DNA of 11,068 nt from the IMG/VR virus record IMGVR_UViG_2700989545_000014. One strand, given 5' to 3'. Below the pieces are notes generated by a model, which did no database searches, was not told the origin of the DNA, and saw nothing but the letters and a program-made list of their open reading frames with translations. This document shows positions 1 through 11,068 of the stretch, piece by piece. The position numbers were made by a program, and so were the translations under genes. Positions within the stretch are counted from its first letter, which is position 1; each line of letters starts with the position of its first letter. This DNA is from a virus (taxonomy: Duplodnaviria > Heunggongvirae > Uroviricota > Caudoviricetes).

Positions 1-37
1 GATAAGAATAAAATCAAAGCAATAAGCAGTGTCGTGA

Positions 38-60
38 AACCACCTTCGGGTGGTTTTTTT
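38..60 (+). terminator. Rho-independent terminator (7-bp stem, UUCG tetraloop, T7 run)
   Basis: aaccacc-ttcg-ggtggtt at 38-55 followed by ttttttt to 60, read directly from the sequence. Which transcript it ends is unknown because the upstream gene is outside the window. Confidence 0.5.
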
Positions 61-145
61 GTATTTGTATTTTGTGCAATGGCGGTTGAGTGGCGATGGT
101 GTGGCGATATGCAGAAACAATGGTAGTGCACGTGCTGTTTAAACT

Positions 146-250
146 CTAAGGATGAAGCAGAATTCTTCTGCAGCTCCTCCGTATTTCGCATAGTGAACCA
201 GGACTTCTGTTAAACAAAAATTTTTCTGGGATTTTTCCACTCGACTTCAT
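146..250 (-). pseudogene. Degenerate hok/mok-like remnant (upstream leader frame fused to the Hok C-terminal motif, toxin N-terminus deleted)
   Basis: Minus-strand AGGAGG then ATG at 250 gives MKSSGKIPEKFLFNRSPGSLCEIRRSCRRILLHP*. The FLFNR-P segment matches the short frame upstream of the intact hok at 1178..1273 and GSLCEIR matches the Hok core. Relative to 1050..1420 about 130 bp covering the toxin transmembrane codons are absent and the frame shifts after SLCEIR. Confidence 0.35.
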
Positions 251-531
251 TTTTCCTCCTGCAATCCACCAACAGGTACCTGCGCTAATCTATCTTTTTA
301 ATCTGACAACATCTTGGGAAAAGGCAAATTCGTCAGATTTACTGTTTTTCTGCTGCCTCGAATGCCGATGTCTGAAGCACTGATAAGAGTTCTATCTCTT
401 TGATATAGATCTTTTTTTTGATGAATTGCACGACATATTATCGTTATGACACCTTCTTGTTAAAGGTATTGTACTCCTCATCTCGATTTTATGATGTGGG
501 CTATGATTGGTTAGTAATAGAGTGTATCGGT

Positions 532-813
532 ATGCGATGTGGTTTATTAATGGCAATCTGCCTTTGTTTAGTATCTTTTAGCGGATATGCAGCAACAGGA
601 AAGTCTGATGCTCAGATCAAAAAAGAAATAATTAAAGAATCCATTGAATCTTATCCAGGCAATTGTGCGTGTCCTTATAATCATGCAAGGAATGGTAGTA
701 GATGTGGTGGACGCAGTGCATATAGCCGTAATGGAGGGTATGACGTGGTATGTTATGAGGGTGATGTTACCGATGAAATGATCCGGCAATGGAAGCAGGA
801 GAATGCTGAGTAA
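532..813 (+). CDS. Small secreted Cys-rich protein of unknown function (93 aa with predicted signal peptide)
   Basis: The ORF track frame is 418..813. The signal-peptide-like segment MRCGLLMAICLCLVSFSGYA-ATGKSD (basic n-region, hydrophobic core, A-x-A site) begins at the ATG at 532, so 532 is the preferred start. The mature part has 5 Cys (GNCACPYNH...CGG...VVCYEG). The region is markedly AT-rich compared with the phage genes. The Shine-Dalgarno is weak (GAGTG). Confidence 0.5.
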   Translation: MRCGLLMAICLCLVSFSGYAATGKSDAQIKKEIIKESIESYPGNCACPYNHARNGSRCGGRSAYSRNGGYDVVCYEGDVTDEMIRQWKQENAE

Positions 814-879
814 TCTCTTTTAACAGGTTTGTTGTGCGAGCATTATGTGCCGTTAACGGTACACTAGCTAGTGATAGTT

Positions 880-922
880 CCAAAAAGAAAACCCGCAGTT
901 CTTACGCTGCGGGTTTGTTGTT
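880..922. terminator. Bidirectional rho-independent terminator
   Basis: Stem cccgcag (892-898) / ctgcggg (907-913) with an 8-nt loop. It is flanked by tttgttgtt on the plus strand and ttttcttttt on the minus strand, so it can end both the 532..813 gene and the minus-strand hok transcript. Confidence 0.6.
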
Positions 923-1001
923 CATGTCTGTGAGATAGGGTGCCACTTCAGCCAACCTTAGCAACCGATTGACGGGGGATTGCTCCCCCGTCGCGGTTTC
1001 C

Positions 1002-1142
1002 TTACTGCTTACACTGTAAGAACGCCGCAAACTCCGCTCCCCAGAAGCTCATCCGTATTTCACACAGCGAACCGTGTAGCATCCAGATGATGAGGATTAC
1101 CGTCACGCAGAACGTGATGGCCGTAAGCGATTTTTGCGACAT
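1002..1142 (-). CDS. hok: Hok/Gef-family type I toxin (46 aa membrane peptide)
   Basis: Hand translation of the minus strand gives MSQKSLTAITFCVTVILIIWMLHGSLCEIRMSFWGAEFAAFLQCKQ*. It has an N-terminal hydrophobic helix plus the conserved Hok core SLCEIR and the AAF(L) C-terminal motif seen in Hok, Gef, RelF, PndA and SrnB. AAGGAG lies 8 nt upstream of the ATG. It is absent from the ORF track because it is under 60 aa. Confidence 0.7.
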   Translation of the reverse strand: MSQKSLTAITFCVTVILIIWMLHGSLCEIRMSFWGAEFAAFLQCKQ

Positions 1143-1177
1143 AGCGCTTGCTCCTTTGTTGGAGAGGCGCTAACCTA

Positions 1178-1273
1178 TCACTTGCTTAAGGTAGATATGT
1201 TAGGGCCTCGGTTAAACAGAAATGTTTTCCGGGGCCTTTCCACATCTGGCCTTCGGGTATTCCCTCCGACCAT
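1178..1273 (-). CDS. Short upstream (mok-like) reading frame in the hok leader
   Basis: The 31-codon frame MVGGNTRRPDVERPRKTFLFNRGPNISTLSK* shares the FLFNR-P peptide with the remnant copy at 146..250. Unlike classical mok it stops about 35 nt before the hok start and has no clear Shine-Dalgarno, so its function is uncertain. Confidence 0.25.
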   Translation of the reverse strand: MVGGNTRRPDVERPRKTFLFNRGPNISTLSK

Positions 1274-1333
1274 CAGCCGAAAGGCACCCGCGCGTAATCT
1301 ATCGCTTTTTTGTTACTCCGGCAATTCTGCCTG

Positions 1334-1594
1334 TTAATTCTGAGGTAAAGGCAAACTCATCTGATTGTTTCCCCTGTGTGAAGCTGGCAGCTCATGCCAC
1401 GGGATACCTTCTGAAGAGTGAACGCCGGAGGTGTGTTTTGATGTGAATTTATGGAAAGCTTCCAGTGTTGAGAAGCATACGCCGCATTCCAGGTTGTTAC
1501 ACTGGTAATACTTTTGCCGCACGGTGTTTGAATCATTTTCAGGACGACTGGTGCGGATACGGGCAGATGCGCCACAAAGCGGACAACGGAACAT
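1334..1594 (-). CDS. ogr: Ogr/Delta-family zinc-finger late-gene transcriptional activator (86 aa ORF, C-terminus atypical)
   Basis: The N-terminus MFRCPLCGASARIRTSR...YYQCNNLEC has the CxxC...CxxxxC zinc-finger layout and matches P2 Ogr (MFHCPLC...). AAGGGAGG lies 5 nt upstream of the ATG at 1594. The ORF is longer than P2 Ogr (72 aa) and its last ~28 codons lie in DNA homologous to the hok-like repeat. Confidence 0.8.
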   Translation of the reverse strand: MFRCPLCGASARIRTSRPENDSNTVRQKYYQCNNLECGVCFSTLEAFHKFTSKHTSGVHSSEGIPWHELPASHRGNNQMSLPLPQN

Positions 1595-1636
1595 AGCGAC
1601 CTCCCTTAACGTGGTGCTGCTGCTATTCTAAGTTGC

Positions 1637-2746
1637 TCACTCTGTTTCTGCTATCCATTCCGAGATTTTTGCCTCAAGCTCAAGCTGCGTGGTAAAGCCG
1701 CTGTTATCGATGGTGTGCTCGGCTTTTGCAATAATCCAGTCCTGATTATCAATCTCGCTTTTAAATCCTGTTACCGTGCCATGCATTTCGGGGTAGAGTT
1801 CTGCACGACCACATGCCAGCGTGATGGAGAATGATGCGGCTCCGCGTTGTAGCTGCTGCCACTTTGCCGCCGCTGCGCGTCTTGCTGCCTGCTCGTTCTG
1901 ATAAGTCTTGCGTAACACAAACACATTGCCTTCCGCGCCTTCCATATAATCACCTTCACGGCTGCTGCTTTTCTCCTTTTTGGGTTTTGGCGGTTTACGG
2001 CGTTTCACGCTGACTTTTTTCTTTTTCCCGTAATTAAGATCAAGCCAGTAGGCGCGTACCCCCGTATACGCCTCGCGGTCAGCAATACGGAACTGATGGC
2101 GATCGCCGCTGCTGCGTGTAATGGCGAACGAGGGCAACGGCTGGCCCTGTGCGTTCACGCCACCACCTGGCATGATGAATAACAGATTGCCGCTTTTTAC
2201 CGTGGTGATTGCGCCCAGCATTTCCGCCATGCGCGTAAGGAAGGACATATCGCTTTCTTCGGTCTGGTCGGCGTGGTCGATTTCGATATCCATCAGCATT
2301 TCGCTGATTTGCGGTTTCAGACCGTACCGATGAGCGATGGCAGATACCACGCGCTCAACGGTCACATCATGCCAGGACACCTCACGTTTAACGTTAAATT
2401 CATCCCGAAAATCTGCGCTTCTGGCTGAAACAGTCAGCCTGTCCGGCGGTCCTTCGTGAGCGATTTCATCAACAATGTAAGTGCCTTTTTCTGTCAGCGG
2501 TTCTCCTTTCCAGCCAATGAGAACCGTCAGGCGCGCGCCCCGTGGCGGTAGCTGCAACTGACCATCCGCATCATCCAGCGTGATGGTGAGCTGGTCCGCC
2601 TCAAATCCCCGGTTGTCGGTCAGTGACAGGCTCATCAGGCGCTCTGCCACGCCTGACAGCGTTTTACCCTCCGCGAGAATATCAAAATCCGGCATTTTCA
2701 CGGGGTCTGTGCCCTGACTGAGCAATTGCATGGTGGTATCGGTCAT
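1637..2746 (-). CDS. D: P2 gpD-family tail protein (phage late control gene D protein)
   Basis: The 369-aa product contains SLSLTDNRGFEADQL...LTVLIGWKGEPL, typical of the gpD family. The start is placed at the ATG at 2746 (MTDTTMQLL), which is preceded by GGGAGGG; the track ORF extends to 2878 without a ribosome-binding site. Confidence 0.85.
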   Translation of the reverse strand: MTDTTMQLLSQGTDPVKMPDFDILAEGKTLSGVAERLMSLSLTDNRGFEADQLTITLDDADGQLQLPPRGARLTVLIGWKGEPLTEKGTYIVDEIAHEGPPDRLTVSARSADFRDEFNVKREVSWHDVTVERVVSAIAHRYGLKPQISEMLMDIEIDHADQTEESDMSFLTRMAEMLGAITTVKSGNLLFIMPGGGVNAQGQPLPSFAITRSSGDRHQFRIADREAYTGVRAYWLDLNYGKKKKVSVKRRKPPKPKKEKSSSREGDYMEGAEGNVFVLRKTYQNEQAARRAAAAKWQQLQRGAASFSITLACGRAELYPEMHGTVTGFKSEIDNQDWIIAKAEHTIDNSGFTTQLELEAKISEWIAETE

Positions 2747-2903
2747 CTGTTCCCTCCCTGTGCGGCATGGTCGCATGTGCGTGCGGAGGGGGTTACTGCT
2801 TTTTGTTGTCGCCGTGGCGGGAGAACGGCGCAGGGGTGAGATTACGCACGTGGTGGGTGATGATTGTTGCCGAATCATTTAACGGATACAAGGGGCTGAA
2901 GCT
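2747..2903. promoter_or_regulatory. Divergent intergenic region between D-ogr and the FI operon (expected late promoters)
   Basis: This 157-bp non-coding spacer lies between two divergent starts. By analogy with P2 the FI operon should have an Ogr-dependent promoter here, but no clean TGT-N12-ACA dyad was found by eye. Confidence 0.3.
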
Positions 2904-4088
2904 ATGAGTGAAACTCGTTTTCATGGTGCCCGTGTTACGGAAAATACCGACCTGGTAACAGCGATTAACGATGTTGATTCCAGCGTTATCGGTATCGTGG
3001 CAACGGCGGATGATGCGGACGCGAAGCTGTTCCCGCTGAATAAGCCCACACTGCTGACCCGCGTCAATGACGTGCTGGGAAAATGCGGGACAACGGGGAC
3101 GCTTTATCGTGCGCTTAAGGCCATCGCAGACCAGGTGAGCACAAAGGTGATCGTCGTTCGCGTGGCTGAACACAAAGAAGAAGACGGAAAGACGCAGGAT
3201 CAACTGGTTATCGGTGGTTCTGAGGATGACGGCAGCTATACGGGGATGTATGCGCTGCTTGTTGCAGAGCAGGATGAAAGCATCGGATACCGTCCGCGTA
3301 TTCTGGCCGCGCCGGAGCTGGACACGGAGGCTGTAACAAAATCCCTGTGCGTGATTGCAGGTAAACTGCGCGCGTTTGTGTATGCCTCATGTCACGGCTG
3401 TAACACGATGGCTGAGGCGATTACCTACCGCCAGAAATTCAACGAACGTGAGGTGATGCTCTTATGGCCGGACTTCATCGCCTACAACCCGAAAAGTGGC
3501 AAAAACGAAACGTTCCCCGCGCCTGCTTATGCGTGCGGCCTTCGTGCGTACATTGACCATGAGCAGGGCTGGCACAAATCGCTGTCCAACGTTCCGGTTA
3601 AAAATGTGCTGGGAATGTCCAGGCATGTGTTCTGGTCGTTGCAGGCCGAAGACAGCGATGCCAATAGCCTCAACAACAAAGAAATCACGACCATTATTCG
3701 TCGCAACGGGTTCCGCTTCTGGGGCAACCGCACACCGGAAACGAACGCCTACATCTTTGAGGTGTATACCCGAACCGCACAGGTGCTGGCTGATTCAATT
3801 GCGGAAGCGCAGTTTGAAACCATCGACAGTCCACTGACACCTGCGAATGTGAAGGATGTTATCAGCGCCATCAGGGCAAAACTGGATTCGCTGGTTACTG
3901 CCGGGAAACTGATTGGTGCGGAGTGCTGGTATGACGTGGTGGATAACGGCACCACGAATTTACGTCAGGGACGTGTGCGTATTCGCTACAAATATACGCC
4001 TGTTCCCCCGCTGGAAGACATGGAGCTTTACCAGACGTTTACTGATGAATTCTTTGGTCCCGCATTTGCGGTGCTGGGAGGTGCCTGA
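2904..4088 (+). CDS. FI: Contractile tail sheath protein (P2 gpFI family)
   Basis: The 394-aa product aligns by eye with P2 FI along its length (FPLNKP, KLRAF, AYRQ-F, WPDF, EQGWHK-LSNV, IRRNGFRFWGNRT, YTRTAQV, YTPVPPLE). AAGGGG lies 7 nt upstream of the ATG. Confidence 0.9.
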   Translation: MSETRFHGARVTENTDLVTAINDVDSSVIGIVATADDADAKLFPLNKPTLLTRVNDVLGKCGTTGTLYRALKAIADQVSTKVIVVRVAEHKEEDGKTQDQLVIGGSEDDGSYTGMYALLVAEQDESIGYRPRILAAPELDTEAVTKSLCVIAGKLRAFVYASCHGCNTMAEAITYRQKFNEREVMLLWPDFIAYNPKSGKNETFPAPAYACGLRAYIDHEQGWHKSLSNVPVKNVLGMSRHVFWSLQAEDSDANSLNNKEITTIIRRNGFRFWGNRTPETNAYIFEVYTRTAQVLADSIAEAQFETIDSPLTPANVKDVISAIRAKLDSLVTAGKLIGAECWYDVVDNGTTNLRQGRVRIRYKYTPVPPLEDMELYQTFTDEFFGPAFAVLGGA

Positions 4089-4600
4089 TGGCTGTACCAA
4101 AACATCTTCGCTTTTTTACGTTGTTTGTGGATGGTGAAAACGAAGTGGGTAAAGTGACATCCGTCACGCCGCCCAAACTGACGCGCAAAACCGACAGCTA
4201 TCGTGGTGGTGGCATGATGGGGGCGGTAAGTATTGATCTCGGTCTGGACGACTCCGCGCTTGATGCGAGTTTTGTCATGGGGGGAGCTGTTCGTGCGCTG
4301 TTCCTTAAATATGGCGGCACGATTGACGGCACGCTGCTGCGTTTTGCGGGTGAATACTACACCGATGCAGAAAGCGATCTGTATGAAATCGAGATGCGCG
4401 GGCGTGTGACGGAAATTGATATGGGGGAAGCCAAACAGGGCGAAGCCACATCACACACTTACGCTGTCAAAAACACCTACTACAAGCTGAGCGTTAACGA
4501 TCGCCCGCTGTGGGAAATCGACCTGTTGAACCACATCTACCGGAAGGACGGCAAGGACATTGTGCCTGACCGTATCCGTTCCGCGCTTGGGCTTGGCTGA
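4088..4600 (+). CDS. FII: Tail tube protein (P2 gpFII family)
   Basis: The 170-aa product carries VTPPKLTRKTDSYRGGGM, the LGLDD motif and MRGR-EID-GE-KQGE, matching P2 FII. Its start overlaps the FI stop (ATGA), indicating translational coupling. Confidence 0.9.
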   Translation: MAVPKHLRFFTLFVDGENEVGKVTSVTPPKLTRKTDSYRGGGMMGAVSIDLGLDDSALDASFVMGGAVRALFLKYGGTIDGTLLRFAGEYYTDAESDLYEIEMRGRVTEIDMGEAKQGEATSHTYAVKNTYYKLSVNDRPLWEIDLLNHIYRKDGKDIVPDRIRSALGLG

Positions 4601-4612
4601 TAAGTAATATGC

Positions 4613-4633
4613 AGGCGGCGCAGTGCGTCGCCT
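4613..4633 (+). other. Intergenic GC-rich hairpin between tube and chaperone genes (possible attenuator or RNA-processing site)
   Basis: An 8-bp stem aggcggcg / cgtcgcct with a 5-nt loop, followed by only two T residues, so it is not a strong terminator. Confidence 0.25.
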
Positions 4634-4655
4634 TTGACTGAAAAGGAGACAACTG

Positions 4656-5030
4656 ATGAAAGACATCGATACTGAAACCCGGAATAACACCGTGGCGGAT
4701 GATGTGACGGCAGGTGAGGATATGGCTGTCGAACGTGGCGTAAAACTGACCCGACCAATTGAGCGTGGTGGCGAAAAAATCACGTATGTGGAGATCACCG
4801 GGGCTATTGAGCAGGCTGGATCCCTGCGTGGTCTGTCGCTGTCTGATGTGCTGAATCTGAAAGCGGATACCATGTTTACGCTGTTGCCTCGCGTGACCTC
4901 GCCACGACTGGATGAAGTGATGATTAAAAAAATGTCGTCACGCGATTTTATTCAGTTGTGCGCAGTGGCTGTAAATTTTATGAGCGAGCCAGACTCTGGC
5001 GCGAAGAGCGTGCAGGAGACGGCAGCGTAA
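4656..5030 (+). CDS. E: Tail assembly chaperone gpE
   Basis: The 124-aa ORF has AAGGAG 7 nt upstream and sits between the tube and tape-measure genes, where P2 and lambda (G/GT) carry the chaperone pair. A slippery heptamer lies near its 3' end. Confidence 0.8.
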   Translation: MKDIDTETRNNTVADDVTAGEDMAVERGVKLTRPIERGGEKITYVEITGAIEQAGSLRGLSLSDVLNLKADTMFTLLPRVTSPRLDEVMIKKMSSRDFIQLCAVAVNFMSEPDSGAKSVQETAA

Positions 5031-5194
5031 TCACTCTGGTGTGCTTTGAGCACATCGAAGATCTGGTGGCGGATATTGCCGCCATTTTTAACTGGTCGCC
5101 CGCCGAAATCTTCATGATGACGCCCGGCGAAGTGGTTAGCTGGCGTGAGCGGGCGGCACTTCGCAGCGGGAATGCAGATAATGAAGACTCTTGA
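4656..5194 (+). CDS. E+E': gpE+E' chaperone fusion produced by programmed -1 ribosomal frameshift
   Basis: The -1 frame (track ORF 4958..5194) overlaps the end of E. A canonical X_XXY_YYZ heptamer A_AAT_TTT lies at 4973-4979 in the E zero frame, and slipping there continues as ...CKFYERA... in the E' frame. The arrangement is conserved in contractile-tail phages. Confidence 0.6.
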
Positions 5195-7988
5195 TATCCG
5201 GGTCGCTTTCAGCGCCGTTGACAGGCTGACCCGGCCTGCCGAAAACGCCCGCCGCCTGATGGGGCAGTTTGGTGACTCCATCCAGCGAACGCAGGGGGCG
5301 ATCAAAAATCTCGAGCGTCAGGCGCGTTCATTTGAGCGCGCCCGTGACGCTGTCAGTAAAGCGGATGCTGGCATCGTGAAAGCACGACGCCAGCTTAACG
5401 CCCTTAATCAGTTACAACGCACGGGTACAGTGCTCAGCGAAAAACAACAAAAGCTGATGCAGCAGTTAAGCACCCGGCTTGAACGCCTGAATGAATCGCG
5501 CACACGGGAAATTCAGAAAATGCGGGAGCTTGGCGGAGAGCTGAAACGCCACGGCATTTCCCTGACAGGCAGCGATAACACCATCCAGCAGGCCATCAGA
5601 CGCACCGAACAGTACAACAACCAGCTTGAACGCGAACGGCAGGCGCTTGCGCGTGTAACGCGGGCGCGTGAGCGGTATTCGCGCGCGCAGGAAACCGCGG
5701 GAAAACTGAAAACAGGTGGTGCGCTGGCAATTGGTGCTGCAGCGGCTGGCGGCTATGCCGCCGGGCGTTTTTTGCAGCCTGCGATCGGGTTCGGCAAAGA
5801 GATGTCCCGCGTTCAGGCACTGACGCGAATCGACAAAAACAGCCCGCAGTTTAAGGCGCTGCGTGAGCAGGCGTTAAAACTTGGTTCTGAAACACAGTTT
5901 ACTGCGAGTGATGCCGCCAGTGGGCAGAGCTTTCTGGCAATGGCTGGTTTTACTCCGCAGGCCATTCAGGCCGCATTGCCCGGTGTTCTTAATATGGCGC
6001 TGGCAGGTGGCGTCGAACTCGGCGAGACGGCTGATATAGGCTCCAATATCCTCACACAGTTCAACCTGACAGCCGATCAAATGGACCGGGTTGGCGATAC
6101 GCTGACAGCAGCATTCACCCGGACCAATACTGATTTACGCGCGCTGGGCGAAACCATGAAGTATACCGGTCCGGTTGCCGCAAAACTTGGTATCAGTCTT
6201 GAAGAAGCGGCGGCCATGGCCGGGATGCTTGCCAATAATGGTCTTCGCGGAAGCGATGCTGGTACGGCCATGCGCGCAAGTCTGTCCCGCCTTGCATCAC
6301 CGCCAAAAGCTGCGGCTGATGCACTGAAAGAGCTGGGGGTGTCAGTTGCTGACGCCAGAGGCAAAATGCGCCCGATGGAGGATGTGCTGCTTGATCTCTA
6401 TAAGGCGACACAAAAATACGGACAGGTGGACCAGGTCTCCTTCTTCAAGGACATCGCCGGAGAAGAGGCGTTCGTTGGTTTGCAGACGCTTGTTGCGGCG
6501 GCTGGTTCAGGAGAACTGCAAAAACTGACCAGAGAATTGCAGGGGGCAAGGGGAGAGGCCGATCGCGTTGCAAAAGTAATGGCCGATAATCTTGATGGAG
6601 ACCTGAAAAATCTCGACAGCGCATGGGAAGGTCTTCGTATTCGCATCAGTGATCTGGTTGACGGTCCGCTGCGTTCTGTCACGCAGTGGCTCACGCGGGT
6701 GCTTGAAAAAATCACCTCGCTGGCGCAGGCCCATCCGGTACTGACGCGCCAGCTACTGATAGCAGGCGGTGCGTTGCTGGCAATGACTGCAACGATTGGC
6801 TCGTTGTCGCTGGTTATTGGGGTGCTTTACGGGAAGCTGGCCACCTTGCGTCTTGGTTTCGACATTCTTACCCGGTCAATGAATGTCATCAGGGTGTTGC
6901 CTGCGCTGTGGGGAATGGTGACGGGTTCTGTTTCTTTGCTGGGTGGCGCTATCGGGGCGCTGTTCAGTCCGGTTGGTCTTATCGTGGCTGCGCTTGCCGG
7001 AGCTGCCGTTCTTATCTGGAAATACTGGGATCCCATCAGGGCATTTTTTGCCGGGGTGTTCAGCGGGATTATGGAAAGGCTGACCCCGTTGCGTGAAACC
7101 TTTGAACGGTTTGGCCCTGTTTTTGACGCAATCGGAAGCGGGATCAGCCTGGTGTTTAACTGGTTTAAATCGCTGTTGTCACCGATGGAGTCCAGCAAGG
7201 AAACGCTGGATAAATGCACCAGTGCTGGCGAGGTATTCGGTAACGTTCTTGGCGGTGCGTTACAACTTGTTCTGACACCTGCAAAAATGCTACTGGATAC
7301 GCTGGCGTGGATACTTGAAAAACTTGGTGTCCTTCCGGATGAAGCGGAAAGGGCGCGCAAGAAAATCGAAGACGCACAGCGTGCGGCCATTCTTCAGGAC
7401 AAGGTTGCCTTGCTTCAGGGGGACCTGGCGAAAATCAATCCGCCGAAGCCTGTGGAAAATGGCAATGGCACCGGAGGTGATAAACCCAAAGACAACAAAC
7501 CGCTCACAGACAGCAATACCGGGACGCTACGCAGACTCAGCAAAATTGCTGATAACACAGGTAAGCTGGTTGATGAGACGAAAAAACGCATTGGCCCCGG
7601 CGATATTGTCTTTAAGAACCTGCCCCGCGCACTTGCTGTTCGTGGGGAGTGGCAGGAGCGGAAGATTGCGCAGGTCAGTAAGCCTGCCCCCGCAATTAAT
7701 ATCACACCCGTGGTCTCGGCTCCGCTGCCTCCGGCGCTGGTCCCTGTTGTTGCGGCCAGCTCCCGCCCGGTGGCGGAGGCCATACGATCGCCAGTGGCAT
7801 CAGTTCCTGCAACTTCCCGTAACCGGGAGCCTGCTGTCTCCGGATTTTGCGGTGAAATTCATGTTCATCTGCATAACGTTGTTACGCAGAATCCCCGCGA
7901 ACTGGCGAAACTGGTCGGTGAAATGGTCAGGGCAGAGATGGAACGGCGCGCCCGTGCCGGACGTGGCAGTTTTTACGATAAAGATTGA
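5181..7988 (+). CDS. T: Tail tape measure protein (P2 gpT family), about 935 aa
   Basis: A long ORF directly after the chaperone pair. It has a coiled-coil-like, Q/R/E-rich N-terminal third, internal hydrophobic segments and a Pro/Ala-rich C-terminal region. The start is placed at the ATG at 5181 (GGGA 9 nt upstream); the track frame opens at GTG 5145 inside E'. Confidence 0.85.
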   Translation: MKTLDIRVAFSAVDRLTRPAENARRLMGQFGDSIQRTQGAIKNLERQARSFERARDAVSKADAGIVKARRQLNALNQLQRTGTVLSEKQQKLMQQLSTRLERLNESRTREIQKMRELGGELKRHGISLTGSDNTIQQAIRRTEQYNNQLERERQALARVTRARERYSRAQETAGKLKTGGALAIGAAAAGGYAAGRFLQPAIGFGKEMSRVQALTRIDKNSPQFKALREQALKLGSETQFTASDAASGQSFLAMAGFTPQAIQAALPGVLNMALAGGVELGETADIGSNILTQFNLTADQMDRVGDTLTAAFTRTNTDLRALGETMKYTGPVAAKLGISLEEAAAMAGMLANNGLRGSDAGTAMRASLSRLASPPKAAADALKELGVSVADARGKMRPMEDVLLDLYKATQKYGQVDQVSFFKDIAGEEAFVGLQTLVAAAGSGELQKLTRELQGARGEADRVAKVMADNLDGDLKNLDSAWEGLRIRISDLVDGPLRSVTQWLTRVLEKITSLAQAHPVLTRQLLIAGGALLAMTATIGSLSLVIGVLYGKLATLRLGFDILTRSMNVIRVLPALWGMVTGSVSLLGGAIGALFSPVGLIVAALAGAAVLIWKYWDPIRAFFAGVFSGIMERLTPLRETFERFGPVFDAIGSGISLVFNWFKSLLSPMESSKETLDKCTSAGEVFGNVLGGALQLVLTPAKMLLDTLAWILEKLGVLPDEAERARKKIEDAQRAAILQDKVALLQGDLAKINPPKPVENGNGTGGDKPKDNKPLTDSNTGTLRRLSKIADNTGKLVDETKKRIGPGDIVFKNLPRALAVRGEWQERKIAQVSKPAPAINITPVVSAPLPPALVPVVAASSRPVAEAIRSPVASVPATSRNREPAVSGFCGEIHVHLHNVVTQNPRELAKLVGEMVRAEMERRARAGRGSFYDKD

Positions 7989-7994
7989 GGAGTC

Positions 7995-8489
7995 ATGGTC
8001 ATGATGATGATCTACGGCATGTTTGTTTTTGAGCTGCGCACATTGCCGCATCAGCAGTTACAGCAAAACAAAAGCTGGCGGCATGTGAAAAATGAACGCG
8101 TTAACCGTTCAGCAAGCTGGCAGTATATCGGTGCAGGTGATGATCGCATTGTGCTTTCCGGCGTGCTTTATCCTGAAATTACAGGTGGCGAAGTGTCGCT
8201 TTCATTGCTGACCACGCAGGCATATACAGGACGGCCCTGGCCTCTGATTGATGGTGTCGGGCAGATTTACGGCATGTATGTACTGACTGAAACGAATACG
8301 ACCCGTTCCGAGTTTGATCGCTACGGTAAGGCGAAAAAGATAGAATTTTCACTGACTCTTGAACGCTGTGATGAGGATTTGCGGGAGCGCCTGCAATCCT
8401 CATCGTTCAGCGATATGTTGTCCGGCTTCAAAGATAAGGTGACATCATCCCTTAATAGCGCGGCCAGCTCAGTTAAGGGGCTGCTCTGA
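7995..8489 (+). CDS. U: Tail protein gpU (P2 U family)
   Basis: The N-terminus ...MMMIYGMFVFELRTLPHQQLQ... and the LSG-L-PE-TGG, WPL-DG-G and SEF motifs match P2 gpU (MMMVLGLFVF...). Shine-Dalgarno spacing favours the ATG at 8001 over 7995. Confidence 0.85.
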   Translation: MVMMMIYGMFVFELRTLPHQQLQQNKSWRHVKNERVNRSASWQYIGAGDDRIVLSGVLYPEITGGEVSLSLLTTQAYTGRPWPLIDGVGQIYGMYVLTETNTTRSEFDRYGKAKKIEFSLTLERCDEDLRERLQSSSFSDMLSGFKDKVTSSLNSAASSVKGLL

Positions 8490-8499
8490 TTTAACGTAT

Positions 8500-8532
8500 G
8501 TCGCCAATTTCCTGATGAAGGTGACTGGCGAC
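8500..8532 (+). terminator. Weak hairpin downstream of U (possible end of the tail operon)
   Basis: gtcgcca (8500-8506) pairs with tggcgac (8526-8532) across a large loop and is followed by moderately T-rich sequence. Structure only. Confidence 0.2.
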
Positions 8533-8565
8533 TTGCTGTTGTATGTCCTTCTCAGAAAATTGTTT

Positions 8566-8594
8566 TTGAATAATAAACAACAGGATTTTATAAT
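8566..8594 (+). promoter_or_regulatory. Near-consensus sigma70 promoter for the cargo gene
   Basis: TTGAAT (8566-8571), a 17-bp spacer, then TATAAT (8589-8594). The predicted transcription start near 8601 is followed by AAGGAG at 8634-8639. Confidence 0.5.
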
Positions 8595-8645
8595 CTCTTA
8601 ACCTTATAACATGTGTGGTCTGAAATAATAATTAAGGAGATTATC

Positions 8646-9218
8646 GTGCTGTCTTACCTAATGGCAATTCACTTTGTTTTATTTGGGAACTCTACTAATT
8701 TAAAAAACTTCTGGAAACATGAAGTAATTCGGCGGAAACGTATGGATATCTGGAGGCTTTTAAGAGAGAAAAAGCAGCGTAACAGGAATTTCCTTTTCTG
8801 GTGGCGGTTGGCTAACGAAATGTATATTAATGGTAATAAATTACATAAGAAAGCAGCCAAGAAGTTAAACAGTAAAATAATTAACAAATTTGGTTGCGAA
8901 ATTGGATTGGGCGCAAATATTGGAAAAGGGTTAACAATTCCCCATCATGCTGGAATTGTTGTTCATTTTGCTGTTGATGCTGGTGAAAATCTGGTGTTAC
9001 GACAGAATACGACCATTGGACAGATAGATGGTGACATACCTGGTTCAAGAGTAAAAATTGGTAGCAACGTTGATATCGGAGCTAATTGTTGCATCATTGG
9101 ATTATCCCGTAAAATTGGGGATAATGTAAAAATAGGTGCAATGTCTTTTATAAATAAAGATATACCATCGAACTGCACATATATAACTAAAAAGAGCGGT
9201 GCTGTATTGTATAAATAG
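8646..9218 (+). CDS. Hexapeptide-repeat (left-handed beta-helix) O-acetyltransferase of the CysE/WcaB/NodL type, prophage cargo (moron) gene
   Basis: The C-terminal two-thirds shows imperfect hexapeptide repeats (GCEIGLGANIGKGLTIPHHAGIVV...VKIGSNVDIGANCCIIG...IGDNVKIGAMSFI) resembling serine and polysaccharide O-acetyltransferases. The start is placed at GTG 8646, 6 nt after AAGGAG; the track frame opens at 8613. The gene is far more AT-rich than the flanking phage genes. Confidence 0.7.
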   Translation: MLSYLMAIHFVLFGNSTNLKNFWKHEVIRRKRMDIWRLLREKKQRNRNFLFWWRLANEMYINGNKLHKKAAKKLNSKIINKFGCEIGLGANIGKGLTIPHHAGIVVHFAVDAGENLVLRQNTTIGQIDGDIPGSRVKIGSNVDIGANCCIIGLSRKIGDNVKIGAMSFINKDIPSNCTYITKKSGAVLYK

Positions 9219-9226
9219 AGTACATA

Positions 9227-9263
9227 AAGCCATCGATATTTCTATCGATGGCTTTTTCTTTTT
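9227..9263. terminator. Strong rho-independent terminator after the cargo gene
   Basis: A 12-bp stem aagccatcgata / tatcgatggctt with loop tttc is followed by tttttcttttt on the plus strand. The tfa stop codon lies at the edge of this element. Confidence 0.7.
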
Positions 9264-9840
9264 ATTGTGGGGCGACTGGCCACTCAATATCTGCTGCTAC
9301 TGTTGTATCAACACGATGCAACAATACTCGATATGTCTTCCATGCAGCCAGTAACGATGTCTCTTCCTCCGTCGCAATATCTAAATCTATAGCATCCTGA
9401 AGTGGTGCAATATGCTCACTGGCTACCTGCATCAGGCTGTTTTTTGTTTCTTCCGCCTCCCTTATCCGAAATAGTTTTTCTGCTTCTGCATCTTTCACCC
9501 AGGATGTGCCGTTCCACTTCTGATACTCTCCATACGGCGACAACCAGGTAACATTTTCCGGTAACGGACCGAGTTCAGAAATAAATAACGAGTCCCCTGA
9601 TGCCACGTCATAAACCGTTTTACCCCGATGGTCTTCAACGAGATGCCACGATGCCTCATCACTGTTGAAAACGGCCACGAAGCCAGCCGGAATATCTGGC
9701 GGGGCAATATCGGTACTGTTTGCAGGCAGACCTGTATGAGGTGAAATGTATGCATCACCTTCACCAATAAACTCATTGGTTCCGGTCAGTAGATTATAAA
9801 TTTTTATGGTCCGTGATTGTTCACTCATTCTGAATGTCAT
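9262..9840 (-). CDS. tfa: Tail fibre assembly protein (lambda Tfa / P2 gpG family)
   Basis: The 192-aa product ([18 protein letters not shown]...[20 protein letters not shown]...) closely resembles, from memory, the TfaR/TfaQ-type chaperones of E. coli lambdoid prophages. Its ATG overlaps the stop of the upstream fibre segment (TAATG). Confidence 0.9.
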
Positions 9841-10226
9841 TATGCAAGCCTCACAATATAGTTAAATGCGATGTTTTTTACGGTGTTTTCTGCGTTCCCC
9901 GTAGCATTAACGGTGATGGTGTGTCCGTGGGGACCAATAATGACAGAATGGGCATGAGCACCAATGCCGATAGTGTGGTTATGGGCACCGATATATACAT
10001 TGTGAGCATGCTCTCCTGCGCTCGACGTGGTACCAGTACCTAACGCAGCGTTATAACCGGCTGATACACCATTCCCCGCGCCAGTGTGACCAACAGGTAT
10101 ATTGTGTGAATGAGCTCCTGCGCTATTTGTGGTTTTTGTGCCGTAATCAAATGAACTGGTCGTTTTAGTACCGTAATCAAACGACGGCCCGGCCACTGGC
10201 GGGTTTGCCCTTAATCGTCCAGCCAC
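9840..10226 (-). CDS. stf: Side tail fibre, distal receptor-binding segment with HxH repeats (out of frame with the upstream fibre ORF)
   Basis: The 128-aa frame contains GAHSH...[37 protein letters not shown]...[11 protein letters not shown], an HxH-rich fibre tip, and a tandem FDYGTKTT repeat. It is translationally coupled to tfa. The frame opens only about 4 codons upstream of the GTG at 10226, so it is not an independent gene extending upstream. Confidence 0.6.
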
Positions 10227-11068
10227 GCATATCAGGGATCACGCCTGACGGATAAGCGGCTGCAAGTTTCGGGTAGGCAGATTTGTCAAAAGTCTGCCCC
10301 TGCATCAGGGCATAACCAGACGGAACGGTATCCGATGGCCACGGGATTGGTGCGCCAGGCGGATAAAACTGCTCTGATGGCGTATAGAGTGAATAAACTG
10401 TACCGTCCGTTAACCCTTCCGGCTTATTAGCAGAATATGCTGGTGACGTATGAATCGTCACGCTGGCATTACTGGTATAATCCCATTGAATATTTACACC
10501 AGTCGCATAATTTCCGATTGCAACGTAAATATCGTAAGTATCACCAGATGTATTGACCCAGGCAAAATTTGTAAACCCTGTCGATGTGCGCTGCCATAAA
10601 GCACCAGTAATCCCCTTCGGATTACCATTACCTGCACGCAAAACAAGTTCAGATATACCTGCCTGTTGAGGTGAACCGACGTTAAATCCAGCGCCACCAA
10701 TCAACGTAATTGAAACAACAGAACTCGCCTGTGGCATGGTTACCGTTGCTAATTTGAACCAACCAGCACCACCGCTGAATGACATTGTTGTTGAGTTAAG
10801 CGTACCAATATCTTTCGGCGTCAGTGTTATATCCGCCGAAAGCGCCTTACCATTCACCTTACGGGCAGAAGGTACCCGACCATTCGCATTGTCATTAGCT
10901 GCTTTCACTGCTTTCGGTGTTGCAGCAAGCGTTTCAGATGTGCTGTTGGTTGCACTACTGAGCTGGACAATTCCTTTTTGTGCCGTCGTGGCGTCCTGTG
11001 CGGTATATTTCCCGTTAGCAAGGTCATAGGCTGCCTTTACCGCCTTTGGTGTTGCCGCCAGCGTTTCT
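10177..11068 (-). CDS. stf: Side tail fibre, shaft portion (5'-partial; continues beyond the window edge)
   Basis: The frame is open from the window edge to the TGA at 10177. It carries the repeated fibre motif [14 protein letters not shown] twice (hand translation of 10900..11068) and a Gly/Thr/Ser/Asn-rich shaft, as shared by lambda Stf, P2 H and Mu/P1 S. The track start at 10908 is an internal GTG. Confidence 0.7.

Follow-up and report, generated by a model that had tools for sequence, protein, structure and literature searches.

A private 86-bp deletion probably accounts for the split tail fibre gene of a P88-like prophage

One interrupted tail fibre gene is that of phage lambda: Hendrix and Duda are said to have described, in 1992, a frameshift in the stf gene of lambda PaPa, which reads as orf401 and orf314 where Ur-lambda has an intact stf. 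In fibres that carry a PF12571 domain, this domain attaches the fibre to the baseplate, and Tfa/gp38-type chaperones act on the fibre C-terminal region in folding and trimerisation. In the gp37 tip of phage T4, the collar fold (D10) comprises residues 811-881 and 1010-1026, and the needle (D11, residues 882-1009) is inserted into it (PMC6957217). The T4 needle holds seven iron atoms, coordinated by histidines and described as critical for folding, and alanine substitution of the iron-binding residues H929 and H931 abolishes plaque formation (PMC6957217). Here we describe the tail fibre gene that lies at one end of an 11,068-nt stretch of caudoviral DNA (IMG/VR record IMGVR_UViG_2700989545_000014; hereafter, the window), which is the whole of contig LKDD01000108.1 of draft assembly GCA_001440645.1. 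This gene is split between two reading frames, and the split is probably the result of a recent, private and inactivating deletion of 86 bp in a P2/P88-type fibre gene.

The fibre gene and the adjoining tfa gene are on the minus strand of the window, and the 5' end of the fibre gene lies beyond the contig end. The parts of this locus are listed below, with the prophage of Escherichia coli OkiPb01713 as the reference and 2XGF as the structure of the T4 gp37 tip.

10177..11068, minus strand: shaft frame, the 3' two-thirds of a gpH-type fibre gene in its original frame (translation, Pfam, identity to OkiPb01713).
10184..10186, minus strand: deletion junction, the sole remaining copy of a 3-nt microhomology, CGT on the coding strand and ACG on the plus strand (BLAST segment overlap, five-way alignment).
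9840..10183, minus strand: remainder of the fibre gene in the +1 frame, a T4 gp37-like needle and receptor-binding tip (translation, alignment, 2XGF match).
9262..9840, minus strand: tfa, an intact tail fibre assembly chaperone gene of the gpG/Caudo_TAP type, 192 aa (Pfam Caudo_TAP PF02413, 1e-40).

The shaft open reading frame (ORF) is given as 10177..10908 in the program-made ORF list, and its frame stays open to the contig end (11067). It closes at a premature stop, TGA 10179-10177, two codons past the deletion junction. The tip frame is open from 10238, after TGA 10241-10239, so that four codons (SLIC) precede GTG 10226, which is the start in the ORF list; the public gene call (118 aa) starts at GTG 10196. 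The codons of the tip ORF that lie upstream of the junction are out-of-frame shaft sequence, and the remainder of the fibre gene proper begins ...SFDYGTKTT. Five HxH motifs (AHSHN, EHAHN, AHNHT, AHAHS, and PHGHT) are read in this frame, which ends at TAA 9842-9840, overlapping the tfa ATG as TAATG (9842-9838). The shaft and tip frames overlap by 50 nt (10177-10226). The coordinates of the two frames, their overlap of about 50 nt, the short opening of the tip frame and its coupling to tfa had all been reported in an initial annotation of this DNA and were confirmed in the sequence; the break, which had been placed within 10177-10237, was located more precisely, at 10184-10186.

We considered whether the two ORFs might be paired by chance. 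Both pieces match 2XGF consecutively and in order (shaft end, 109 bits; tip, 29 and 75 bits), and close relatives have a single ORF of 667 aa to which the two align one after the other. On this basis we reject a chance pairing and, in agreement with the initial annotation, read the shaft and tip ORFs as one interrupted fibre gene.

The interruption itself was defined by comparison with OkiPb01713 (NZ_AP042682.1), to which the window is 99.98% identical, the sole differences being two single-nucleotide polymorphisms (SNPs), both synonymous (positions 3848 and 5035), and 86 missing base pairs. Positions 1-10186 of the window match the reference at 10184 of 10186 nt without gaps, and positions 10184-11068 match it at all 885 nt, but 86 nt further along; the two matching segments overlap by exactly 3 nt. 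A five-way alignment likewise contains a single gap, the 86 nt being present in all four intact relatives and missing from the window. As recovered from the reference, the missing coding-strand sequence is CGTATTGTCTCAGGAACAGGACGGCATTAAATCGCACACCCACAGCGCCAGCGCATCCAATACGGATTTGGGGACGAAAACCACAT, or its equivalent shifted by the CGT microhomology. The left end of the deletion lies in the unique sequence GGCCGGGCCGTATTG, and the resulting junction reads CCGGGCCGTCGTTTGA. As 86 equals 3 x 28 + 2, the deletion removes residues 526-553 of the 667-aa fibre (plus 2 nt), including the first iron-binding HxH motif, and places everything downstream in the +1 frame. Restoring the frame alone would therefore leave 28 residues of the ascending strand missing, one HxH iron site among them.

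These alignments do not bear out the proposal of the initial annotation that the gene was interrupted by a single-nucleotide frameshift, whether by mutation or by sequencing error in a short homopolymer. Such a slip would be consistent with the two frames differing by one position and with the short G/C runs nearby, and a genuine 1-nt insertion in a C-run does occur in the same gene of another strain (locus L008, discussed later). Nevertheless, the intact homologues and the near-identical reference show one 86-nt gap and no other insertion or deletion in 11 kb, and the lesion is not at a homopolymer; the 1-nt slip is thereby refuted, and we assign it virtually no probability. Alignment with intact homologues was a check that the initial annotation had recommended, and it was this alignment that located the 86-nt gap at 10184-10186.

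Two candidate routes to the deletion were tried and rejected. A DNA hairpin bringing the deletion ends together was not indicated, as the intact 136-nt region folds no better than its shuffles (z = -0.67), and collapse of either the FDYGTKTT repeats or the shaft repeats does not fit a left end in unique sequence and ends that share only 3 nt. Separately, we observed that a small GC hairpin (GTGGCCGGGCCGT) with a T-rich stretch after it has arisen at the junction (10184-10196, minus strand) and appeared terminator-like in a consensus scan; with 5 pairs, this hairpin is within chance expectation (3 found, compared with 2.0 +/- 1.5 in shuffles).

We compared the region by megablast with 5,426 complete E. 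coli genomes, about 1,200 of which hold most of it. In the ten best genome matches, all with full query cover, the matched stretch is 82-218 nt longer than the query and falls in 2-3 pieces, and in each of the top 30 E. coli matches the matched stretch is listed as one 'phage tail protein' or 'tail fiber protein'. In the four loci that were fetched with their RefSeq annotation, the fibre is a single 'phage tail protein' of 667-715 aa with tfa directly after it. Of 13 homologous loci altogether, 12 encode the fibre in one ORF (627-715 aa), with the frame open for 632-725 codons to the stop; the exception, L008 (GCA_900449155.1), has its own 1-nt insertion elsewhere in the fibre gene. The exact Tfa protein of the window is present in 648 blocks of public assemblies, and, of the eight neighbourhoods shown, seven have a one-ORF fibre beside it. 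Among same-tip relatives the fibre measures 627, 667, 671, or 715 aa (L009 and L010, 2118-4001; L003, 1667-3814), apparently because the shaft repeats differ in copy number and, for L003, because the N-terminal domain is a different one.

These loci also speak to the idea that shaft and adhesin tip are normally separate genes in this fibre family, the finding that the initial annotation had named as contrary to its own reading. The tip region is indeed in two pieces in two distant phage records, PhiR30_1 and O157 typing phage 13. However, one ORF spans the site in 12 of the 13 loci, the split in L008 is elsewhere and of its own making, the top 30 E. coli matches list a single fibre or tail protein, and the region is one continuous chain in the T4 gp37 crystal structure. 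Homologues are thus not routinely two genes; separate genes are refuted for this lineage, and the idea retains scarcely any credibility.

The junction, in contrast to the gene, was found nowhere else. It was absent (i) from the 5,426 complete E. coli genomes, using a 44-nt megablast query that only junction-bearing sequence could match, (ii) from GTDB species representatives (43-nt pattern), and (iii) from metagenome contigs (26-nt pattern). The short query was chosen for the first search because, with a 116-nt junction query, matches split into two pieces score level with contiguous ones. The 128-aa product of the ORF that starts at GTG 10226 returned no exact-protein match, and the 118-aa product from GTG 10196 was matched exactly only in the source contig and was absent from the clustered protein collection. 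Conversely, the undeleted left junction, GGCCGGGCCGTATTGTC, is kept in 13 of 13 other fetched loci. Because the junction is unique to the source contig, and because only two synonymous SNPs distinguish the window elsewhere, the sequence comparisons point to a very recent, private event.

The position of the loss can be read on the T4 structure. The last 217 residues of the intact homologue (451-667) match 2XGF (T4 gp37 785-1026; E=2.1e-77) across the collar, the needle, and the C-terminal strand, and the deleted codons align with T4 gp37 residue for residue. V525 corresponds to residue 88 of the 2XGF chain and S553 to residue 116; a conceptual fusion of the two window pieces, aligned to 2XGF, breaks after chain residue 88. 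With chain residue 1 equal to gp37 785, the lost stretch is gp37 873-900, which runs from the last part of the first collar segment into the beginning of the needle, and the shaft product of the window ends at the equivalent of gp37 V872. This numbering was confirmed, because S868 and R870, which are named as amber sites in T4 gp37 and were isolated as the suppressor-dependent phages S868am and R870am (PMC6957217), are the S and the R of a common SGRAV motif. A continuous chain, with D11 within D10 and all HxH rungs in place, is not encoded in the window, in which the deletion has taken the 873-900 equivalent, first HxH included, and broken the frame. The window would thus hold a disrupted, rather than a functional, member of the gp37-type tip family.

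We also weighed whether the split might be recoded, or the fibre made in two parts, such that a +1 shift near GUU-UGA (10182-10177) yields a shortened fusion, or shaft and tip are two separate products that come together with Tfa. The geometry would permit it: the tip frame is open where the shaft frame stops, ...GRAVV-DYGTKTT... would result from a +1 shift at GUU UGA, GTG codons are present at 10226 and 10196 in the tip ORF, and Tfa is intact. In the prfB shift, tRNA-Leu re-pairs at a CUU-U site with an upstream Shine-Dalgarno stimulator. Here, however, the site GUC GUU UGA U is preceded by GGCCGGGCC, in which we read no Shine-Dalgarno-like stimulator, and, judged from what is known of prfB, tRNA-Val cannot re-pair from GUU to UUU. 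Nor is there a convincing ribosome-binding site 5-12 nt upstream of either GTG. The arrangement is found in no homologue and nothing in it is conserved, given a unique junction and a single ORF in 12 of 13 loci. Finally, with one HxH rung among the 28 structural residues that any fusion would lack, the two strands of its needle, ascending and descending, would no longer be in register. The initial annotation had already ranked a frameshift-controlled or recoded fibre below its other readings; we agree, and consider such a fibre very improbable. A related and equally slim prospect is that the deletion allele lives, through a low-level +1 shift at GUU-UGA or a start at GTG 10196, with a one-rung-shorter needle that folds with the intact Tfa. 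Its one basis is the geometry of the overlapping frames; if true, the allele would be a natural example of needle-length plasticity in a gp37-type tip.

We therefore return to an inactivating deletion as the favored explanation, and propose the following course of events. The ancestral fibre would have had an N-terminal baseplate-attachment domain, 44-aa shaft repeats, a collar domain, and a gp37-like HxH needle with a receptor-binding tip. A loss of 86 bp between two CGT triplets, in a pattern that fits replication slippage or microhomology-mediated end joining, would have left a gene whose translation stops two codons after the junction, such that the product keeps the shaft but has neither the needle nor the receptor-binding head, and its collar fold is left incomplete for want of the C-terminal strand. 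Because the product lacks these parts, and because the chaperones fold the fibre C-terminal region, the truncated protein should form no functional fibres, by analogy with T4 and P2, and particles, if made, could not adsorb. What remains downstream, the tip ORF, would be a leftover and not a gene. Pseudogenization, which the initial annotation had thought possible, is the best reading of a deletion and frameshift seen against a near-identical intact prophage.

Three points weigh against this explanation: (i) the functional consequence, i.e., no fibres and no adsorption, is drawn from knowledge of T4 and P2; (ii) the window covers neither the 5' part of the fibre gene nor the remainder of the prophage, both of which bear on the viability of the prophage in other respects; and (iii) the assembly is a draft, with a contig end in the fibre's own 132-nt repeat, such that an assembly or library artefact is conceivable, if unlikely. 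Under the last of these, the strain's gene would be intact and the 86 nt lost in library preparation or assembly. Consistent with an artefact, the window is an entire draft contig of 11,068 nt that ends in the fibre shaft repeat, a 30-nt FDYGTKTT repeat unit (D5) lies directly against the deletion's right end, and no other genome has the junction. Nonetheless, the ends share 3 nt, and a k-mer or overlap assembler cannot join sequences on that without junction-containing reads; no repeat unit has collapsed, as the left end is in the unique sequence given above; the lesion lies outside any homopolymer and far exceeds typical base-calling indels in size; and the flanks show no errors against the reference. 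Because a 3-nt overlap cannot make a false join, and because of the unique left end and error-free flanks, we prefer a real deletion and regard an artefact as a minor, though not negligible, contender. We infer with good confidence that the deletion, whose ends, uniqueness, and homology were observed directly, is a real mutation rather than an assembly fault.

Which kind of fibre is affected follows from its domains and neighbors. The shaft fragment (window 10180-11067) matches Phage_fiber_2 (PF03406) twice (2.6e-29) and Collar (PF07484; 1e-12). The intact OkiPb01713 fibre, which is 100% identical to the pre-deletion part retained in the window (10184-11068), has the gpH N-terminal domain Phage_tail_fib (PF12571; 1.1e-61), three Phage_fiber_2 repeats, and Collar; the part that encodes PF12571 is beyond the contig end. 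Single-piece megablast matches show positions 882-8495 of the window to be collinear with P88 (93.7% identity) and with P884B11 (94.6%), and the window has hok, ogr, and D on one strand, then FI-FII-E-E'-T-U on the other, as expected of Xuanwuvirus. The OkiPb01713 prophage adjoins the glyW-cysT-leuZ tRNA cluster, pgsA, and uvrC. It carries capsid, terminase, and lysis genes, baseplate genes V-W-J-I, the fibre gene, and tfa on one strand. The opposite strand bears a sheath-tube-E-E'-tape measure-U block together with an acetyltransferase gene; D, ogr, and hok come next. The baseplate genes W-J-I are upstream of the fibre in all homologous loci, though outside the window itself. We accordingly assign the window, on gene content and order, to a P88-like prophage of the P2 family (Xuanwuvirus, Peduoviridae) with a fibre of the P2 gpH type.

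The name 'side tail fibre', which the initial annotation had used, does not suit this gene. It lies among genes for a contractile-tail sheath, tube, tape measure, gpU, gpD, and P2 baseplate, whereas a lambdoid Stf is encoded downstream of J/lom in the tail region of a lambdoid siphovirus, and only the mosaic tip is shared with Stf. The same tip also occurs in proteins annotated 'side tail fiber' in other phages (e.g., JL22, 94%); that lambdoid Stf and T4 gp37 have it too is mosaicism of the kind usual in fibre tips.

Further features of the window are as follows.

1002-1142, minus strand: hok/gef-family toxin ORF, as annotated in OkiPb01713 and P88, at the prophage end by the tRNA cluster.
1334-1594, minus strand: Ogr/Delta zinc-finger late activator, as annotated in OkiPb01713 and P88, at the same prophage end.
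4656-5030 (E) and 4958-5194 (E'): E/E' tail-chaperone pair in a -1 arrangement, with E' overlapping the start of the tape-measure gene (sequence reading).
8646-9218, plus strand: hexapeptide-repeat 'serine acetyltransferase' gene.
9226..9255, no strand assigned: hairpin with a 13-bp stem and T-runs, between the convergent tfa and acetyltransferase genes (consensus scan and sequence reading).

The hairpin is probably a bidirectional terminator that closes the fibre operon. The acetyltransferase gene has a sigma-70-like site of its own (TTGAAT-17-TATAAT, 8566-8594) and lies in an AT-rich segment (8566-9255; GC 0.36-0.38, versus about 0.53-0.58 in the tail genes). It occupies the place of fun(Z) in P2 and of the invertase and invertible segment in P88, and is probably a cargo gene for lysogenic conversion. 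The E/E' overlap contains a canonical slippery heptamer, A_AAT_TTT (4973-4979), and is the one likely programmed frameshift in the window; the SNP at 5035 falls in E'. The window starts just past the tRNA-Leu of the glyW-cysT-leuZ cluster and ends inside a 132-nt (44-aa) shaft repeat, both of which are typical breaks of short-read contigs. In addition, the FI-FII-E-E'-T-U block (window 1637-8489) is inverted relative to the P2 order H G fun FI FII E T U D ogr; in P2 the genes from H to ogr all run rightward except fun, whereas in the window the FI-U block diverges from D/ogr. Rearrangement was rejected as an explanation, as this order is standard in the P88-like phages of Xuanwuvirus, known as viable isolates; a search of the window for inverted repeats flanking the block found none.

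The initial annotation had mentioned other signs of decay, but we found none in the window, which outside the deletion differs from an intact, unflagged prophage only by two synonymous SNPs. Lesions were found instead in relatives. L008 has a 1-nt C insertion, CGACCC to CGACCCC, near codon 141 of its fibre gene (2400-2460); strain 90-3040 (L001) and relatives have an internal stop in gpI and IS600/IS3 insertions in the tape-measure gene; and OkiPb01713 itself has an internal stop in the gpS virion-morphogenesis gene (L005, 26266-26901). These lesions are independent and show that decay is common in this prophage family; even the reference prophage, with its intact fibre, may be defective.

An event of this type is ordinary, already well understood, and raises no new biological question. 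For annotation, it means that the 118-aa 'gene' and the truncated 296-aa fragment should be merged as one pseudogene produced by an 86-bp deletion, and that the prophage should be predicted to make no adsorbing particles. The junction can serve as a private marker for the strain or lineage, and its occurrence in a prophage that is otherwise the same as an intact counterpart shows how young such lesions are.

The likenesses and differences between this locus and described systems can now be stated. As in the P2 gpH/gpG module, the intact homologue has PF12571, Phage_fiber_2 repeats, and a coupled gene for a Caudo_TAP chaperone. As in P88, the D/ogr block diverges from FI-FII-E-T-U; unlike this prophage, which has the AT-rich acetyltransferase gene, P88 has a DNA invertase and an invertible segment of alternative fibres between gpU and tfa, and its tip differs from the T4-like tip found here. 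The intact homologue shares with T4 gp37 the collar fold (D10), the HxH iron-binding needle (D11), and a conserved C-terminal stretch. It differs in that the N-terminal two-thirds of such a fibre are P2 gpH-like, and the window copy differs further, being frameshifted, without the 873-900 equivalent, and with five HxH motifs left (six in the intact homologue), compared with seven iron sites in T4. Another parallel, L008, belongs to the same prophage family, encodes an identical Tfa, and likewise has its fibre split into two called genes (153 and 524 aa), but by a 1-nt insertion in a C-run, the kind of lesion that had been proposed for the window, and at a different place from the 86-bp deletion. 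Lambda PaPa stf, finally, resembles this locus in that a fibre gene with a downstream Tfa gene is split into two ORFs by a frameshifting mutation, with loss of the fibres. The lambda lesion, however, is a single base, in the accessory side fibres of a lambdoid siphovirus, whereas here the loss of 86 bp puts the coding sequence beyond repair by frame correction, and affects a contractile-tailed prophage of the P2 family, for which the homologous tail clusters show no other fibre gene.

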